This document shows, one piece after another, positions 48,191 to 54,943 of a stretch of DNA of 64,000 nucleotides (position 1 is its first letter; each line of letters begins with the position of its first letter). The DNA comes from Escherichia phage vB_EcoP_G7C. The notes under the pieces were generated by a model. It was not told where the DNA came from, ran no database searches, and saw nothing but the letters and a program-made list of their open reading frames with translations. Made by a program: the position numbers and the translations under genes. The stretch is taken from sequence record NC_015933.1; one strand, given 5' to 3'.

Positions 48191-50476
48191 TTACAGGTTC
48201 ATGCCAAGAGCCGATGCTGGGTCTTGGCTAGGGTCATAGTATTGGGAACTAAGTGAATAAGCTGGGTTTTGTTGAGCAGCTAAATCACGTTCTGGTATAG
48301 AGATCCCATCAGTCAAAGTATTATATCCAACAGCTGCAGATATGTTGGGGGTAGTTTCCCCTTCTTTAATAGGTGTTGTCAATGCCTTAGTTATCTGAAG
48401 GTTCTGGTTTCCTTGGGATTGTGCTTTTTGTTTTTCCATATCACGAGCATGTTTAGTACCAGATTCCTGTTCCAGATAATCCAGGTCTTTAAGGTCACCA
48501 CTAGAAGCAGCCTCTTTAGCTTTAGCCATATTGAGTGCAATCTTGCTTTGTAACTCTTCATTCTCAAGCTGTGCTTTCTGAATTGCCAACTGCTTAAGCT
48601 GTTCTTCCATAGGGTCTGGCTGTGGTTGCCAGGTACGTAACTCATGAGCCAGGTCAGGCATACGTTTAAGTTCTGCAATCTTAGCTACGAGAGATAACGT
48701 AATAGTTTGGTCAACCGTATTACCCAATGTTTGAACCATGAAGCTCAGGTCTTGAGATTTCTGGTCTTGAGATTTCTGGTTATCAATTTCAGCAGTATTA
48801 ATATCAACCTCAATGTCGAAATTACCTTTAAGGTCTTCACGGTTAATCTCTACATACTGCTCGTTAGTAATACGTACTACTTCTTTCTCAGATAAAAACA
48901 CAGCATTCATTGCACAAATCTTAGTACCAATGTCTGCCATACCCTTAGCTAATCGACGAAGGATTGCCATCTCACGTTTGGATGCTGCATCAAGTGCACC
49001 ACGAATACCGGCAGCCACTTCTCCGTAAGCTGAACCAGTTACACCACCGGAGAATGCTTTAACACCAGTTAGTGATTCAGCTTCCTGGTTTTGCATCTGG
49101 GTCATTATTATTGCCGACTGAGGTAACTCAGGGAACTTATGCTCCATAATGGCCTGACTAGGGTTACCCTGCATTGGGTTATATTCATAGTCTTGTCCAT
49201 CGTCATATCGACGACGGTTCAGTGTATCCAGCATTCCTTTAGGGTAACCACGTTGTCCATTTGCACTTCGACCTAACAGGTCAATCATCCCTCGCATAGT
49301 TGCACCAAGAATTGCTTGGTTATCCCCCAACAGTTCAGCATCAGCTTCGCCAAAGAGTTCACGTTTACGTGGCATATAAGGAACAACTACTAAAGGTAAT
49401 TTACCGTCAGGGAATGGGTTCCTCTCCATGCGAATAAGGGTAGAACCAATCCAGGTAGCAACAATAGGTTCCAGAGAACCATCATCATTAATGTCGTAAA
49501 ATCCCCAGTACTCATAAGCAACAACCTTCTTACGAAGTGCATCCTTAAACTGGAAGTCACTAGGAGTTTTACTTTCATGGTCTGGGTCAGTCATAGGACT
49601 GGAACTTTCCCAGTCAATCTTATCTAAATTGTGATAACGGTCCTTATTCTTCATGAGGTCTGCTTTGCATGTCTCAAAAGAGATAACTGCATACAGAGCC
49701 TTATCCAAATCACCATTACAGCTTGGGTCGATAACTACGTTATTAGGGTTAAGCATTTCAACAGTAGGTCTGTTAACCAGTGCCTTCTCTACTTCTACTT
49801 CAGTAACTCCTGTCTGGATTGCATAGGTAGCTTCTCCAGTTTCATTGAAGTAGTTAACAGCTTCTTTAATATCTTCCGGCATTGTTTCATCATACTCACG
49901 AGAATTCTCTGCCTGAAGCTGTAAAGCCTGTTGGAGAACATCTGCCTGTTCCTGGTTCTCAATTGGATACAACTGGAAGACTGGTGTTTCTGTTTTAATC
50001 TTAACAGTCTTACGTTCCCAACCAATACGAGCAATACCAGTACCGTCATCTACAACACTGTGTACGTAATCATCTACTAATTTCACTTTATTAAGCTGGG
50101 TACGAAATTGGTAGTTAAGAACTAATTCATTCTGACGTGCAGCTAATTCATCTTCAAAAGTAACCGGAGTTACTTTAAAGAGTTTATTAGACGAGAGGAA
50201 CGGTTCAGATAATGGAGCATATCGCCACTCTGCCTGACGGCGAACCAGTCTGGGTTGGACTTGAGATCGGCCTTTAACCTTTGGGGGTTTAGCCTTACCT
50301 TTGACTTCCATCAGGTCATTCCACTCACGTATCTGAGCCATAATCGCATCGTGAGCAGGTTTAGCCGATTCCAAATCACCCTTCAGTAATTGGATACTTG
50401 GTTCCTTCTTCCAGTCCGTTAACTTCTCTGATTGAGCCGGGTCTGGTAAAGGCTTAAAAGTGTCTTGGTGTTCCAT
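48191..50476 (-). CDS. Portal protein (by size and position)
   Basis: 761-aa ORF downstream of the lysis cassette and upstream of head genes; AGGA RBS; contains an in-frame 15-bp tandem duplication. Confidence 0.7.
48750..48779. repeat. Perfect 15-bp tandem duplication (TCTTGAGATTTCTGG x2) inside the portal gene
   Basis: Two adjacent identical 15-mers; in-frame, encoding [10 protein letters not shown]. Confidence 0.9.
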
Positions 50477-50484
50477 AGTTAATC

Positions 50485-50985
50485 CTATTCAAAAAGTTTA
50501 CGGTCAGCCTGAATTTGTTTACCCAACTCAATTAGTTGGTTGTCACGGAGTCTAACAGTTGCCCGGAGTTCTTCAACCAAACGTCTGCCTTCTTCAAGAC
50601 TGTTGTCGAGTCTGGCTGCATGGCTTGCAAGACTTCTGCACTCAAGGGTTCCGGCTTCGGCTTGACGTTTATATACCGATGCTCGTCTTTCAGACTGTTG
50701 CATCCGGCTGTCGTAATCACTACTAACGCGAGCAAGCTCGCTTGCGTAATTACTCTCAGCCGTCTGCAACCGGGAAGTGAGTAACCCGACTTCATAACTA
50801 TGGTTTCTTTGGAGAGCATTGTATTTGTCCTGTAGTTCTTGCGTTGCCTTCTGATCTTCAACCTTTTGGGCATCCCACTTCTTTTGAACAGTAGACTGTC
50901 CATTGGAATTACCCCAAAAGTAAATGGTGGCCCCGAGGACCACCACCAGAAGATAAGGCCAACCTTTAGAGATTAGCATCTTCAT
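50485..50985 (-). CDS. i-spanin (Rz-like): N-terminal TM anchor plus periplasmic coiled coil
   Basis: ATG at 50985 with TGGAGG RBS; TM segment [17 protein letters not shown]; remainder charged, helical, Q/E/R-rich. Confidence 0.7.
50532..50819 (-). CDS. o-spanin (Rz1-like lipoprotein) embedded in the i-spanin gene in another frame
   Basis: Signal peptide with lipobox-like …[14 protein letters not shown]; short Pro-containing mature part; entirely inside 50485-50985; start could be 50819 or 50795. Confidence 0.55.
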   Translation of the reverse strand: MLSKETIVMKSGYSLPGCRRLRVITQASLLALVVITTAGCNSLKDEHRYINVKPKPEPLSAEVLQAMQPDSTTVLKKADVWLKNSGQLLDSVTTN

Positions 50986-51601
50986 TACATGCCTCCAGTG
51001 GTACATTACCGATTCGGTTAGCTACCCAACCATACGTAAAGTCTGGCATGTTCAATGAGGTGTAGTGGTTCAATTGTTTAGCATCAAGCAACTTAATCAT
51101 TACCTGACATGCTGCAACTTTGCCTCGTTTTTTCTGCAATGCTTTATATGCATTAACAGTACCTGCACCGACTTTACCATCAACTTGTACTTTAGGGTAG
51201 TCTTTGCCATTACGGGACATTTCATTAAGAGATTGCTGCAACCACTTAGCTGGTCTGGTTACACCGGTATTAACACCAGCATCAACCAGTTTGTATGTTA
51301 CAGCAGGAGATATATCAGCGAAGGCTACGAAGTTAGGTTTAATAACGTAGTCATCAATGTATATCTCAGCAGCCATCTCTTTCGATAAACCTTTCATGGA
51401 ACCATCCCAACCATACTCAGTAGCCAGAACTTCTTGGTGAGACTTAGCTACTGAATGGGTAATACCATGATTAGTTTCCCCACCTGGGTCACGAGGATTG
51501 TTTACGTACCCTCCTTCCATATAGAACACTGCCCCCAGAATAGCAGCGATAACTCCTCCCACTGCACCCCCTTTTGCAGCAAGTTTCTGTTTAGCTTTCA
51601 T
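50966..51601 (-). CDS. Endolysin: GH108-family N-acetylmuramidase with N-terminal signal-anchor (SAR-like) segment
   Basis: GH108 signature EGGYVNNPRDPGGETNHGIT; N-terminal Gly/Ala-rich hydrophobic stretch GGAVGGVIAAILGAVF; AAGGAAG RBS. Confidence 0.85.
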   Translation of the reverse strand: MKAKQKLAAKGGAVGGVIAAILGAVFYMEGGYVNNPRDPGGETNHGITHSVAKSHQEVLATEYGWDGSMKGLSKEMAAEIYIDDYVIKPNFVAFADISPAVTYKLVDAGVNTGVTRPAKWLQQSLNEMSRNGKDYPKVQVDGKVGAGTVNAYKALQKKRGKVAACQVMIKLLDAKQLNHYTSLNMPDFTYGWVANRIGNVPLEACNEDANL

Positions 51602-51851
51602 GAGAATCTTCCTTTGGATGGAATCGTATTAGTCTGCCCACAATATTTAAAGCAAACAGTGCGATTGTAATACTGGAACCATGTGGAATATCTTCAAGGA
51701 TGTGACGTGGTAGTCCTGTTAGCATTGGTTGGATAATATCTACTGTAGAAAACAGAATTAATCCAAATGCACTAATCTGAACAGATGCCCACTTCCAGGA
51801 CTTCTTCCAGTTAGGAACTAGCCCTATTTTTCTTTTTAGCTTGTGAACCAT
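51591..51851 (-). CDS. Holin candidate (two TM helices)
   Basis: ATG at 51851 with GGGAGAT RBS; hydrophobic helices ISAFGLILFSTVDII and ITIALFALNIVG; immediately upstream of endolysin. Confidence 0.5.
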   Translation of the reverse strand: MVHKLKRKIGLVPNWKKSWKWASVQISAFGLILFSTVDIIQPMLTGLPRHILEDIPHGSSITIALFALNIVGRLIRFHPKEDSHES

Positions 51852-52168
51852 GCGAATATCTCCCGTCTTGCAGCAGCCAATACACCAATAATTGCACCTG
51901 CCCCAGCCCACACCCACTTACCAAAAATTCCAGCACCTGCAACCTTATGTTTAATGGTGATGAACTCTTCGATGGTAGGTTCAGACTTAGTGATGCTCTC
52001 CTCTACCCGTCTAAGTCGGGTACTAAGATCACCCATAGACTCGCTTAGCTTTTTAATAGACTCTTCCATTTTCTCCCTATCCCTCGATTCACGAGTTTGG
52101 TTTTCGAAAATGTTTCTCAGTCTCTCTTCAAGTCTGGCTAGAGTTACGTTATCTGGTTCATTTCCCAT
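51836..52168 (-). CDS. Coiled-coil protein with C-terminal Gly-rich TM anchor (holin/antiholin-like or tail-associated)
   Basis: Charged helical N-terminal region, C-terminal GAGIFGKWVWAGAGAIIGVLAAA. Confidence 0.45.
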   Translation of the reverse strand: MGNEPDNVTLARLEERLRNIFENQTRESRDREKMEESIKKLSESMGDLSTRLRRVEESITKSEPTIEEFITIKHKVAGAGIFGKWVWAGAGAIIGVLAAARREIFAWFTS

Positions 52169-52240
52169 AGGGATTTTCTCAGGTTAGTTAAGTCGTAATT
52201 GACTGAAACAGTCTACATAAAGGTTTGATTGGGGTACAAC

Positions 52241-52264
52241 AAAAAAGCCCCTCCCTCATGGGCT
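52241..52264 (-). terminator. Rho-independent terminator (minus strand)
   Basis: Stem AGCCC/GGGCT; on the minus strand followed by T6. Confidence 0.55.
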
Positions 52265-52290
52265 TCGAAGATTAAATACTTTTTCTGATG

Positions 52291-52316
52291 ATAAAAATAA
52301 CCCCGCCGAAGCGGGG
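52291..52316 (-). terminator. Terminator/attenuator hairpin downstream of the 851-aa tailspike gene
   Basis: 16-nt hairpin CCCCGC-CGAA-GCGGGG followed on the minus strand by a T-rich run; near-identical copy at 54927-54943. Confidence 0.55.
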
Positions 52317-52344
52317 CATAATTTTAGTTAACTGCTATGCCAGA

Positions 52345-54900
52345 TTAGCCCACATTACCAATAGTCATGCTGTACTCAAGAGTAAATAACTGACTAGAAG
52401 CAGACGGGTTATATAATCCTACATAACCAGAGGTAGCTACAGTAGTAGAGAATGCAGACGTAGTTGCCGTGCCATCATCTGACTCTACAGTAAAGGTATG
52501 AGCACCAGTAGAGGAGGAAGTATATTCCCATACTTTAAAGCCTTTATCTTCACGAGTAGTATCACCAAATACTACCCAGTCAGTTGGGTTAGCATTGTTG
52601 AACGTACCGATGCACATATTACCTGCAGCATTCACACCGACTAACACACCAACATTAGTAAGTGGGTTATAGTTAAGTGCAATATAGGTGTTTTTCTTAA
52701 GACCTCTCGGTACAGCCAGATAACCTACAGATGCACCATTATAAAGGTGAGAGTCTGCGGTTTTACTGAACTGAGTACCAGACAAAACTTCACCAAATAC
52801 ACCATAGTCATTGGCGTTAGACTGCTTCATTACTGGAGCAGGACGGGTCATGTTAGGTTCTTTGCTAAGACGAACCATCGGCAGCTTAACCCCATCCGTT
52901 TTGTAAGAACCAAACTTCAGCATAGGGAAGTAAGCATCAGTAGGACTACCATCAATGATATAACGGATAAAGTTCAAACCTTTACGTAATCGCCCCATAT
53001 AGGTAGTAAGGGTTTTGCCACCCCCAAAGTAACTCATGGCAGTCTTGCCATTAAGCACGGTGCGGTAGGCATTAATTTGAGTATTACGTTCTTGGTATTC
53101 ACCGGACTCAAACAATGCTTTGCCCACAGGAGACTCAACACGGATGTTGTGGGATTGCCCAACAACGGCAGCATTAGTCCATGGTTCTAGAAGGGATACA
53201 GTCATACCTTCTTCTTCACACCATACCATTGTGGTCATGGTTACATTTTCATTAGTTACACACTTAGACAGAAAACGGAATACGTTCAGAGCAGGAGCAC
53301 CAGATACAGGTACATACTGTGGTGCATAGTGAGTACCGGAAGGATACCCTACACAATCCCAATAGTTTTCTACAGCAGCCTGAGTGAGCATATCCCCCGG
53401 TCTAACACGACGACAGTACTTATTACCAAGGGTCTGCATATACATCGCATTACCCATAGCCATTTGTCCAAGTTCTTGTGGGTGAGTAGTATCCCAGGTT
53501 CCATCCTTCTTAACATAGTAGTAGTACCCAGTTTGCTCATTGCGGCTACTTGCACTAGTCAGATTTGGTCCCAAGTTAAAATACTCAACACCTAGTTTAT
53601 CTGCCATGTACTTCTTAGTACTAAGCTCAAATGCCATACGTACTGAGTCATTATCGTTGACTGTTACAATACCAACGGCACAACCGTAGCCCCATGCTTT
53701 ACGAACAAACTTGTCAATCTGGTCACGGTAGGTAGCGATACTAGCACTACTGTCATTCCAACCCATTGCAAGGATACATACACGAGGAGCTTCTGCACCA
53801 TAGCGTGTGTTACCGAAGAACCCACGGTCGAAGTTACGATAACCCCAACCGTCGGATAACTTCTTACCAGATACGGAACAGTTAGCTGATTGGTAAATAG
53901 TTTCACCACTACGACGAGACTGTGTGAGCAACAAGCCATTCATCCAGTGTTCAGTCCATGAGTGGGAACCCCCAGATAAAGAATGATTGTATGTACTTGG
54001 GGCATCTAAGTCACCATCTGAGTTAGTTGGCGGAGAACTCCAATCCTGTTTACCCCATGCACCATCAGTAATGGAATCGCCAATGATACCGATACGACAA
54101 AATGTCTGGTCACGGAATGCACAGTATATTTCGTCATTAACGGTTTTATTGTTACCATTCATTGAAGCAGCAATGTCAAACGTATGGTCCTTTGCATACC
54201 ACTGGTTTTTAACAATAAGTTTGCCTTCCCCAACAAACTTACGGACATCATCATCGGGTAGTAAGTTACAACGAATGGTAACACCATTAGGGATAAAGAT
54301 TTTACCGGGGAAAGCATAAGCAGCTGCACGGTTATCCGTAGTAGTATTAACAACAATACCAGGAACATCATATACGGAAGTAGAACCAACAGGAGGAATT
54401 AGACCATTGTTTAATTCTTGTCGTATTAATTCATCATTAGCAATAACCCATGCAGTGGGAGAAATACCACCTGCACTAACCGGGGTAGAGTTAAGTGGTA
54501 CGCTCTTGGGTAACCCACCAGCCCAGCGATACTGCGTGCCATTATGAGTAAGCAATTCATTCTTGGTCTGTATAACTGAGCCAGAAGTAAACGTATCCGG
54601 TAAAGTTACATATTCTTTGCGAGTAACAGCTAATGCACCTAAGTCCACGCTACCAGCAGAGTGAACTAATACACCAGCAGGACTAAGGCTTATAGCAGTA
54701 ACACCTGAACCAATGTTAGCAGGTAAGGAATAAGCACGCTGTGTCCCTTTGTCGTAGATGACTTTGTAACCACTTAGTACAGCACCCACTGAGAAGTAAA
54801 CAACCTCAGATTGTTTAACCCCAAAGTGACGTGCTATTGCTTGTTTATTGGTTAGGATTCCTGTTGAACCCTTACCGCCTTGTGAGAACATTTCGTTCAT
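52345..54900 (-). CDS. Tailspike with SGNH/GDSL esterase domain (candidate surface-polysaccharide deacetylase)
   Basis: GDSL block RIGIIGDSITDGAWG (Ser at nt 54073-54081); N-terminal ~160 aa similar to an internal domain of the upstream 1063-aa tailspike; AAGAGG RBS. Confidence 0.85.
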   Translation of the reverse strand: MNEMFSQGGKGSTGILTNKQAIARHFGVKQSEVVYFSVGAVLSGYKVIYDKGTQRAYSLPANIGSGVTAISLSPAGVLVHSAGSVDLGALAVTRKEYVTLPDTFTSGSVIQTKNELLTHNGTQYRWAGGLPKSVPLNSTPVSAGGISPTAWVIANDELIRQELNNGLIPPVGSTSVYDVPGIVVNTTTDNRAAAYAFPGKIFIPNGVTIRCNLLPDDDVRKFVGEGKLIVKNQWYAKDHTFDIAASMNGNNKTVNDEIYCAFRDQTFCRIGIIGDSITDGAWGKQDWSSPPTNSDGDLDAPSTYNHSLSGGSHSWTEHWMNGLLLTQSRRSGETIYQSANCSVSGKKLSDGWGYRNFDRGFFGNTRYGAEAPRVCILAMGWNDSSASIATYRDQIDKFVRKAWGYGCAVGIVTVNDNDSVRMAFELSTKKYMADKLGVEYFNLGPNLTSASSRNEQTGYYYYVKKDGTWDTTHPQELGQMAMGNAMYMQTLGNKYCRRVRPGDMLTQAAVENYWDCVGYPSGTHYAPQYVPVSGAPALNVFRFLSKCVTNENVTMTTMVWCEEEGMTVSLLEPWTNAAVVGQSHNIRVESPVGKALFESGEYQERNTQINAYRTVLNGKTAMSYFGGGKTLTTYMGRLRKGLNFIRYIIDGSPTDAYFPMLKFGSYKTDGVKLPMVRLSKEPNMTRPAPVMKQSNANDYGVFGEVLSGTQFSKTADSHLYNGASVGYLAVPRGLKKNTYIALNYNPLTNVGVLVGVNAAGNMCIGTFNNANPTDWVVFGDTTREDKGFKVWEYTSSSTGAHTFTVESDDGTATTSAFSTTVATSGYVGLYNPSASSQLFTLEYSMTIGNVG

Positions 54901-54926
54901 ATAAACCTCTTTGTTTTTCTAAGAAA

Positions 54927-54943
54927 CCCCGCCGAAGCGGGGG
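54927..54943 (-). promoter_or_regulatory. Intergenic hairpin between the two tailspike genes (attenuator or processing site)
   Basis: CCCCGC-CGAA-GCGGGGG, same hairpin as 52301-52316. Confidence 0.5.

Follow-up and report, generated by a model that had tools for sequence, protein, structure and literature searches.

The lysis system of phage N4 has been dissected by complementation, in which N4 gp63, gp62, gp61 and gp60/gp60a were assigned as the pinholin, the late holin, the SAR (signal-anchor-release) endolysin and the embedded two-part spanins, respectively, and the N4 proteins complemented the lysis systems of phage 21 and lambda (Awuah et al., bioRxiv 10.1101/2025.11.12.688109; cited below as Awuah et al.). 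N4 gp63 rescued a defect in the S21 pinholin but could not replace lambda S, whereas gp62, which is non-essential in N4, complemented both the pinholin and the large-hole defects (Awuah et al.). The muramidase gp61, whose first description Awuah et al. credit to Stojkovic and Rothman-Denes 2007, was shown experimentally to be a SAR endolysin that is membrane-associated and works with a pinholin. No hole is required for its export and it is slowly released spontaneously; synchronous release is triggered by the conditionally essential pinholin (Awuah et al.).

In the 64,000-nt stretch of Escherichia phage vB_EcoP_G7C (NC_015933.1) that was analysed, here called the window, five tightly overlapping lysis genes were found on the minus strand at positions 50485-52168 (Table 1). 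The overlaps measured 16 nt (pinholin-like 110-aa ORF and 86-aa ORF), 11 nt (86-aa ORF and endolysin gene) and 20 nt (endolysin and i-spanin genes), in line with the few to about 20 nt given in the initial annotation. Full-length identity to N4 gp63, gp62, gp61, gp60 and gp60a was 59, 56, 70, 58 and 80%, respectively, the last value referring to the mature part, and the cassette DNA was 96.6% identical at the nucleotide level to that of Escherichia phage RudolfBernhard_Bas96 (PQ850623). The 176-nt gap between the tailspike gene and the cassette (52169-52344) holds a terminator-like hairpin just after the upstream tailspike gene, and this putative terminator separates the tailspike gene from the lysis genes. 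Terminator-scan matches within coding sequence at 50923-50947, 51527-51548 and 50958-50977 were taken as chance. With a probability of roughly 0.9, the cassette is judged by homology to be an ordinary five-gene lysis module in which each gene has its orthologue in N4 gp63-gp62-gp61-gp60/gp60a, and the phage to be an N4-like coliphage (Schitoviridae, Gamaleyavirus/G7C-type). Near-identical phages already carry annotations of this module, and experiments have been done on its N4 counterparts.

Table 1. Features of the lysis cassette and its upstream border, with positions in the window. KD19, Kyte-Doolittle mean over 19 residues.
Feature	Position	Strand	Basis
gp63-like pinholin, 110 aa	51836..52168	-	59% full-length identity to N4 gp63; phrog_5211
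gp62-like class II holin, two TMDs, 86 aa	51591..51851	-	Pfam DUF7940; phrog_1356; 56% identity to N4 gp62
SAR endolysin, GH108 N-acetylmuramidase + PG_binding_3, 211 aa	50966..51601	-	Pfam; 70% identity to N4 gp61
SAR domain of endolysin, aa 11-28, GGAVGGVIAAILGAVFYM	51518..51571	-	KD19 1.79; Gly+Ala 50%
i-spanin (Rz-like), 166 aa	50485..50985	-	phrog_6197; 58% identity to N4 gp60
o-spanin (Rz1-like), +1 frame of i-spanin	50532..50795 (or from 50819)	-	80% mature identity to N4 gp60a; lipobox
Intrinsic-terminator-like hairpin, GCCCCGC-TTCG-GCGGGGT + T-run	52300..52317	-	Terminator scan and sequence read directly

The 110-aa protein consists of an N-terminal cytoplasmic coiled-coil region and a C-terminal Gly/Ala-rich membrane anchor (aa ~77-99), with a single C-terminal hydrophobic segment (KD19 peak 1.59 at aa 81-99) and a conserved 'LIN domain', PTIEEFITIKHKVAGAG, at aa 64-80. 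The pairwise alignment with N4 gp63 covered aa 1-110 (E = 2e-51), and phrog_5211 matched with E = 9.5e-49. Rapid-lysis mutations of N4 gp63 map to S62, T65, I70, T71 and I72 (Awuah et al.), all of which are identical in the G7C-type protein. The homology to gp63 suggests that the protein is a pinholin that would make small holes. Weak PHROG 'hemolysin' matches (E about 1e-3), which we take to be XhlA-like, were dropped after the full-length homology to N4 gp63 had been found. Within Gamaleyavirus, the pinholin gene is mosaic over its first ~54 codons, and the protein shares ~67% identity over its whole length with that of Mimir124, as compared with 92-98% for the other cassette genes.

The 86-aa protein, encoded immediately upstream of the endolysin gene, matched Pfam DUF7940 (PF25612; 54.4 bits, cut-off 27) and phrog_1356 'holin' (E = 9.2e-30) and showed two KD19 peaks. 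Its gene has GGGAG upstream of ATG 51851. Translation from an in-frame GTG at 51917 would extend the product to a 108-aa long form, whose frame, among the relatives compared, is open in Enquatrovirus- and Gamaleyavirus-like genomes alone.

The two small membrane proteins had initially been annotated as holin/antiholin candidates; in such a pair, one protein would form the lethal hole and the other would merely postpone it. A dual-start product could arise from the gp62-like gene through its in-frame upstream start, and wild-type N4 lysed ~1 h earlier when gp62 was deleted, an effect that was, however, not complemented (Awuah et al.). Against such a division of labour, N4 gp63 and gp62 are each lethal alone on depolarisation, each complements a holin defect (gp63 that of a pinholin only, gp62 those of a pinholin and of a large-hole holin), and no gp62 mutant was present among >60 rapid-lysis N4 isolates (Awuah et al.). 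We consider the holin/antiholin arrangement unlikely. The role in hole formation is retained, and the homology of the two proteins to N4 gp63 and gp62 makes a pinholin and a late-triggering canonical holin the better reading.

The 211-aa protein carries the Pfam domains GH108 (PF05838; 71.0 bits, cut-off 21.2) and PG_binding_3 (PF09374; 33.6 bits, cut-off 24.6), it also matches an endolysin family in PHROGs, and its GH108-type PDB relatives are 6v3z (E = 5e-27), 6v40 and 2ikb. The GH108 signature EGGYVNNPRDPGGETNHGIT lies at aa 29-48, and the EGGY...DPGG motif, EGGYVNNPRDPGGETNHG at aa 29-46, aligns with EGGYVNDPKDPGGETNHG of N4 gp61. The Glu of EGGY (Glu29, codon 51515-51517) directly follows the SAR domain and is presumably catalytic; a literature search on the GH108 EGGY motif returned nothing. 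The N-terminus reads MKAKQKLAAK, with four Lys, followed by GGAVGGVIAAILGAVFYM and EGGY; Gly and Ala make up 9 of the 18 residues of the SAR domain, the same share as in N4 gp61. The SAR domain is conserved across N4-like genera, being kept in 12 of 14 endolysin frames read in relatives; Erwinia phage S6 was without it, and the N-terminus of Axy10 lay outside the frame read. These results bear out the earlier description of a GH108 muramidase with a SAR-type N-terminus.

The same N-terminus could also be an ordinary cleavable Sec signal peptide of a secreted endolysin, as a hydrophobic stretch with small residues (LGA) inside it comes after a positively charged n-region. This reading is very unlikely: the stretch is half Gly/Ala, abuts EGGY and lacks a c-region, N4 gp61, which has an equivalent domain, is membrane-associated and works with a pinholin, and substitutions that bring one negative charge into the SAR domain of N4 gp61, for example G12E, led to rapid lysis (Awuah et al.). 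The homology to the 70%-identical gp61 points instead to a SAR endolysin with uncleaved Sec-dependent export, membrane tethering and depolarisation-driven release. The initial annotation had proposed release independent of a holin, which fits export without a hole and slow spontaneous release but is overstated in that the pinholin triggers synchronous release in N4.

The i-spanin is predicted to be a type II inner-membrane protein, with its TMD near the N-terminus (aa ~9-22) followed by a long helical domain in the periplasm, and it has one conserved Cys. One KD19 peak of 1.61 was found at aa 3-21 of the 166-aa form (aa 10-28 counted from ATG 51006), and phrog_6197 'Rz-like spanin' matched with E = 1.6e-77 over aa 8-173 of the long form. 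GGAGG is located 6 nt upstream of ATG 50985, the start also used in the Bas96 annotation. The 173-aa form from ATG 51006, taken from the program-made ORF list, was rejected as probably too long: this start lacks a ribosome-binding site, is unused in the annotation of relatives and does not align with N4.

As had been noted from the DNA alone, the second spanin ORF lies wholly within the gene of the i-spanin, a TMD plus putative coiled-coil protein, in another frame, and the pair is homologous to N4 gp60/gp60a. The o-spanin precursor would have 87 aa from ATG 50795 or 95 aa from ATG 50819, and it is uncertain which start is used: two relatives have lost ATG 50795, while ATG 50819 is kept. A longer, 123-aa version of the nested ORF from ATG 50903 was discarded for want of a ribosome-binding site, of use in relatives' annotation and of alignment with N4. 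The TTAG-C site recognised earlier as lipobox-like places the Cys codon at 50700-50702 and leaves a mature lipoprotein of 56 aa. A PROSITE-style lipobox rule, coded by hand with the pattern {DERK}(6)-[LIVMFWSTAG](2)-[LIVMFYSTAGCQ]-[AGS]-C, returned this site with Cys at position 32 and Lys at position 2; from the 95-aa start the Cys falls at position 40, outside the 15-35 range of the rule. Thr at -3 is less common than Leu, Val or Ile. The Asn at +2 is no inner-membrane retention signal and is consistent with outer-membrane sorting.

Conservation of the nested frame was examined in relatives. A search of IMG/VR with the i-spanin gave only 8 very close relatives, whose similarity was too high for a test of frame conservation, and a tblastn sample of a phage collection was used in their place. 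This sample of 22 related loci spans at least 10 genera and reaches down to 36% i-spanin identity, and in every one of them the frame was open with signal peptide, lipobox and Cys. The mature o-spanin was conserved at 59-100% among relatives, the dual-coded stretch of the i-spanin at 60-88% and its remainder at 23-76%, and the overlap stretch had fewer substitutions among close relatives. The stop-free run of the nested frame is 146 codons, as compared with 60 ± 19 after synonymous resampling of the i-spanin, and only 9 of 5000 resamplings reached 146. Neither of the observations named in the initial annotation as refuting it, a missing lipoprotein signal or a nested frame that relatives do not keep open, was made.

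The nested +1 ORF might nevertheless be an untranslated by-product of the i-spanin gene, which would make the spanin system incomplete or different. It is unannotated in most public records, RefSeq re-annotations included, ATG 50795 lacks a strong Shine-Dalgarno sequence, and a profile search of the nested ORF against Pfam and PHROGs gave no significant family, so that its identity as o-spanin rests on the homology to N4 gp60a and on frame conservation. Because so few resamplings reached its length and the frame was kept in every relative sampled, it is not a chance frame; together with the conserved mature sequence and the rescue of lambda Rz/Rz1 amber mutants by N4 gp60 and gp60a (Awuah et al.), this largely refutes the by-product explanation, which we regard as highly improbable. 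Among relatives, the Bas96 record labels the ORF 'o-spanin' and the Mimir124 record lists it as a misc_feature.

There is hardly any chance that the 110-aa protein is a virion part, as the product name 'tail length tape-measure protein' on many N4-like records implies and as relatives of its coiled-coil part adjoining tail genes in Phapecoctavirus genomes might suggest, since 110 aa with a membrane anchor are unlike a tape measure, the Phapecoctavirus copies are truncated remnants without that anchor, and N4 gp63 acts as a pinholin in complementation and CCCP assays (Awuah et al.). Most public N4-like records lack or misname the nested o-spanin and the pinholin ('tail length tape-measure protein', 'hypothetical protein'); in the Bas96 record, 4 of the 5 cassette genes carry lysis names, the o-spanin included, and the 110-aa gene is a 'hypothetical protein'.

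From homology to the N4 experiments, we infer the following mechanism for the G7C-type cassette. The GH108 muramidase would be exported by Sec and stay inactive in the inner membrane, where the SAR domain, weakly hydrophobic and rich in Gly/Ala, would tether it and keep the EGGY motif close against the membrane. The 110-aa pinholin would accumulate and trigger, and its small holes would depolarise the membrane, whereupon the SAR domain would slip out and the enzyme would be released and active around the whole cell. The two-TMD protein may act as an accessory, later-triggering, large-hole holin. Once the murein is degraded, the inner-membrane i-spanin and the lipoprotein o-spanin in the outer membrane, made from the same DNA in two frames and, by analogy to gp60/gp60a, joined across the periplasm via their C-termini, would disrupt the outer membrane.

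G7C, the type phage of the group, was reported to be without lysis inhibition, unlike N4 (Awuah et al.), and lysis regulation may therefore differ from that of N4 despite the same parts. The extension of the holin long form from the GTG overlaps the membrane-anchor codons of the pinholin. It is a doubtful but conceivable proposal that the 108-aa form is a lineage-restricted antiholin-like product, and that the difference in lysis inhibition between N4 and G7C maps to start sites (gp63 Met17; gp62 long-form ATG versus GTG) or to factors outside the cassette. If this were so, a comparison with this genus would be a natural way to find the signal for lysis inhibition in N4. G7C-type phages, with the same parts and reportedly without lysis inhibition, could help to map the control of lysis timing and of the very large N4 burst. 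Beyond correct annotation, the cassette itself has little significance, being a textbook pinholin/SAR-endolysin/spanin system whose N4 orthologues have already been dissected.

Among known systems, S21/R21 of phage 21 follow the same logic of a SAR endolysin freed by membrane depolarisation and share no sequence relationship with the present proteins. R21 is a T4-lysozyme-type enzyme, in contrast to the GH108 enzyme found here, and S21 has two TMDs, N-in and C-in, instead of a single C-terminal anchor with a long cytoplasmic coiled coil. Lambda Rz/Rz1, likewise unrelated in sequence, are also a spanin of two parts, in which the i-spanin gene holds the o-spanin gene in its +1 frame. In N4, gene order, strand and overlaps are as in the G7C-type cassette, which adjoins the portal gene in both phages; the SAR-domain composition and LIN-domain residues are common to the two, and a 56-aa mature o-spanin is nested in the +1 frame as here. 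The G7C-type cassette differs from that of N4 in several details: residue 17, the second start Met17 in N4 gp63, is Leu; the gp62 homologue has GTG in place of ATG as the start of its long form; the lipobox is TAGC and not IVGC; and, as the short start of the N4 type (MKSLLILL...) is missing, the signal peptide of the o-spanin has a greater length (32 or 40 aa). Gamaleyavirus genomes such as Bas96, Mimir124, PhAPEC5 and PhAPEC7 share 93-97% nucleotide identity across the cassette, with few substitutions, and in Bas96 the holin, endolysin, Rz-like spanin and o-spanin are annotated at the coordinates derived here.

The lysis cassette consists of five minus-strand genes, flanked by the portal gene (48191-50476) on one side and by a gene for an 851-aa tailspike-like protein (52345-54900) on the other, with overlaps of 16, 11 and 20 nt between successive genes, as the initial annotation had accurately described, leaving the strand unstated. 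By megablast, it was 96.6% identical to Escherichia phage RudolfBernhard_Bas96 (Bas96) and 93-96% identical to many phages of the genus Gamaleyavirus (Schitoviridae; N4-like, G7C-type). The equivalent coordinates of Bas96 are annotated as hypothetical protein, holin, endolysin, Rz-like spanin and o-spanin. Upstream of the cassette, the tailspike-like gene product (851 aa, minus strand) carries a GDSITDG motif (SGNH-hydrolase-like) and presumably resembles the G7C gp63.1 O-antigen-deacetylase tailspike.

Features of the lysis cassette and its surroundings (window coordinates unless a locus is named)
Feature	Coordinates	Strand	Details
Pinholin gene (gp63-like)	51836-52168	minus	110 aa
Holin gene (gp62-like)	51591-51851	minus	86 aa; ATG with GGGAG upstream
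Endolysin gene (gp61-like)	50966-51601	minus	211 aa
i-spanin gene (gp60-like)	50485-50985	minus	166 aa; GGAGG 6 nt 5' of ATG
o-spanin ORF (gp60a-like)	50532-50795	minus	87 aa; +1 frame within i-spanin gene
Strong terminator-like hairpin	52300-52317	minus	terminator scan
Pieces shared with Phapecoctavirus	51892-52057 and 54626-54930		relatives' loci L022 2498-3246 and L023 2501-3129

The phage N4 cassette sequence was retrieved and compared protein by protein with that of the window. In N4, gp63 (110 aa, C-terminally anchored) is the pinholin and master timer, with rapid-lysis mutations clustering at S62, T65, I70, T71 and I72 (the 'LIN domain'); gp62, with two TMDs, is a holin that triggers late, makes large holes and is non-essential; gp61, a SAR endolysin, works with a pinholin, and negative charges in its SAR domain lead to rapid lysis; gp60 and gp60a form an embedded two-part spanin pair able to complement lambda Rz/Rz1 amber mutants, and gp60a is 56 aa long when mature (Awuah et al., bioRxiv 10.1101/2025.11.12.688109).

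The nested o-spanin frame is real, as indicated by its presence in relatives, its length against chance, the conservation of the shared DNA and the substitution density. All 22 of 22 loci had a +1-frame ORF in which a start codon precedes basic residues, a hydrophobic stretch and a lipobox with its Cys, the mature part being 56-63 aa long. These loci cover at least 10 genera, with i-spanin identity down to 36%, from phages of Escherichia, Klebsiella, Pseudomonas, Achromobacter, Burkholderia, Erwinia, Stenotrophomonas and Xanthomonas. The +1 stop-free run spans 146 codons versus 60 ± 19 expected, a length reached in 9 of 5000 resamplings that replaced i-spanin codons by synonyms according to the codon usage of the phage; the +2 frame was unremarkable in the same resampling. 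The doubly coding DNA was much better conserved, with identities of 59-88% (o-frame) and 46-88% (i-frame), than the remainder of the periplasmic domain of the i-spanin (23-76%). Close relatives showed fewer substitutions in the overlap (in locus L010, 8% versus 20% in the non-overlapping 5' part).

A PROSITE-style lipoprotein rule recognizes Cys at position 32 of the o-spanin, followed at +2 by Asn, a residue that does not signal retention in the inner membrane; with the frame open in all the loci compared, the proposed embedded lipoprotein therefore stands. Pfam and PHROG searches returned no family match for the nested ORF. The i-spanin has one N-terminal TMD, matches phrog_6197 'Rz-like spanin' (E = 1.6e-77) and is 58% identical to N4 gp60; the mature o-spanin (56 aa) is 80% identical to gp60a. 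The short N4-type o-spanin start is absent in the window. The start is ambiguous between ATG 50795, used in Bas96, and ATG 50819, because the former is lost in ECBP1 and L010 (ACG or another non-start codon), whereas the latter, which AGGA precedes by 8 nt, occurs in every Gamaleyavirus-like locus; starting at 50819 would give a 40-aa signal peptide.

The GH108 muramidase assignment of the 211-aa protein holds: Pfam matches were GH108 (71.0 bits, cut-off 21.2) and PG_binding_3 (33.6 bits, cut-off 24.6), solved GH108-type structures were matched (6v3z, E = 5e-27), and identity to N4 gp61 was 70%. Its N-terminus reads MKAKQKLAAK-GGAVGGVIAAILGAVFYM, then directly EGGYVNNPRDPGGETNHGIT, and the SAR domain equals that of N4 in length and Gly+Ala content (9/18). 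The suggested holin-independent release is correct for export and slow spontaneous leakage but not for normal timing, which is gp63-dependent in N4. The N4-like Erwinia phage vB_EamP-S6 (L021, 800-1880) encodes a GH108 endolysin without a SAR domain (MNKTQIIDQVIGKEGGY…) and an extra 176-aa gene (gp090) between endolysin and spanin; no gp63-like gene was detectable at this locus. This lineage appears to have switched to a soluble-endolysin lysis scheme.

The N-terminal two thirds of the 110-aa protein are strongly charged and helical-looking, and its C-terminus holds one Gly/Ala-rich hydrophobic segment (Kyte-Doolittle 19-residue mean, 1.59). Its sole family match in the Pfam and PHROG search was phrog_5211, of unknown function. 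It aligns gap-free with N4 gp63 over aa 1-110 (59% identity), all five LIN-domain residues are the same, and the motif PTIEEFITIKHKV does not vary among the genera compared. The alternative start Met17 of N4 gp63 is absent, residue 17 being Leu in the window. A mosaic boundary lies inside the gene, 5' of the LIN domain, and the first ~54 codons (52006-52168) differ within Gamaleyavirus; it was placed there because the megablast match to many of these genomes ends at query position ~1707 (window ~52006) and identity to theirs over the full pinholin is just ~67%, versus 92-98% for the other cassette genes.

The 86-aa protein has two hydrophobic segments, matches DUF7940 (54.4 bits versus a cut-off of 27) and phrog_1356 'holin', and is 56% identical to N4 gp62. 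Given the N4 gp63 and gp62 roles, 'pinholin plus holin' describes the two small proteins better than the 'holin/antiholin' pair first proposed. The holin frame is open upstream to GTG 51917, making a 108-aa long form possible; the extension (51852-51917, 22 codons, VGVGWGRCNYWCIGCCKTGDIR) is in frame and overlaps the pinholin anchor codons. The long-form start is GTG in the window and Bas96 but ATG in N4 and Jgk1, and no ribosome-binding site was evident upstream of GTG 51917. The extension has been treated as a possible dual-start motif in N4 (Awuah et al., bioRxiv 10.1101/2025.11.12.688109). Because a stop closes it in Kaypoctavirus, Erwinia phage Fifi067 and Stenotrophomonas phage Paxi, the conserved product is the 86-aa form; the extension probably looks conserved because it overlaps the invariant pinholin anchor codons. 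In Pseudomonas phage inbricus (L014, about 1135-1390), an in-frame stop (…VLQS*VIALPRH…) interrupts the gp62-like frame, and just a 44-aa fragment of this holin is annotated; the stop fits the dispensability of gp62, or it may be a sequencing error.

Between the cassette and the tailspike-like gene lies a 176-nt gap (52169-52344). A second GC-rich hairpin with a T-run, uncalled by the scan, was seen by eye near 52236-52262. Because of the terminator-like hairpins in this gap, a separate late promoter may serve the cassette; a search of the minus strand found no sigma-70-like site.

Phapecoctavirus genomes (about 150 kb; Escherichia phage vB_Ec-G1, Klebsiella phage ZCKP1) carry a shortened pinholin gene copy, up to 91.6% identical to the window in nucleotides, in which the LIN domain is retained but the membrane anchor is gone. 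About 160-260 nt downstream follows a homologue of the tailspike-like gene's first ~100 codons, the two pieces being in the opposite order to that in the window. The arrangement resembles a scar left by recombination when N4-like and rV5-like phages exchanged tailspikes; such recombination may account for the 'tail' names of gp63-like proteins. Many records name the 110-aa protein 'tail length tape-measure protein', and in several N4-like records this name and 'RIIA/RIIB lysis inhibitor' lie over the pinholin/holin/endolysin region. Cassette annotation is inconsistent in N4-like records, e.g. OY979416.1 and OP870143.1. The o-spanin is annotated in just 2 of the best 25 hits and left out of most other records, RefSeq re-annotations included; in Mimir124, another Gamaleyavirus genome, the nested ORF is hand-marked as a misc_feature.

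By homology to N4, the muramidase would be exported by Sec; its SAR domain would hold it in the inner membrane in an inactive state, the EGGY motif lying against the bilayer. The pinholin would build up, trigger and depolarise the membrane, releasing and activating the muramidase, with the two-TMD holin as a putative accessory late holin; once murein is degraded, the i-/o-spanin complex would disrupt the outer membrane. G7C has been reported without lysis inhibition, although the LIN domain is intact in the window. The initial observation is confirmed, and its interpretation is supported apart from minor corrections: this is an ordinary N4-type lysis module, already described.
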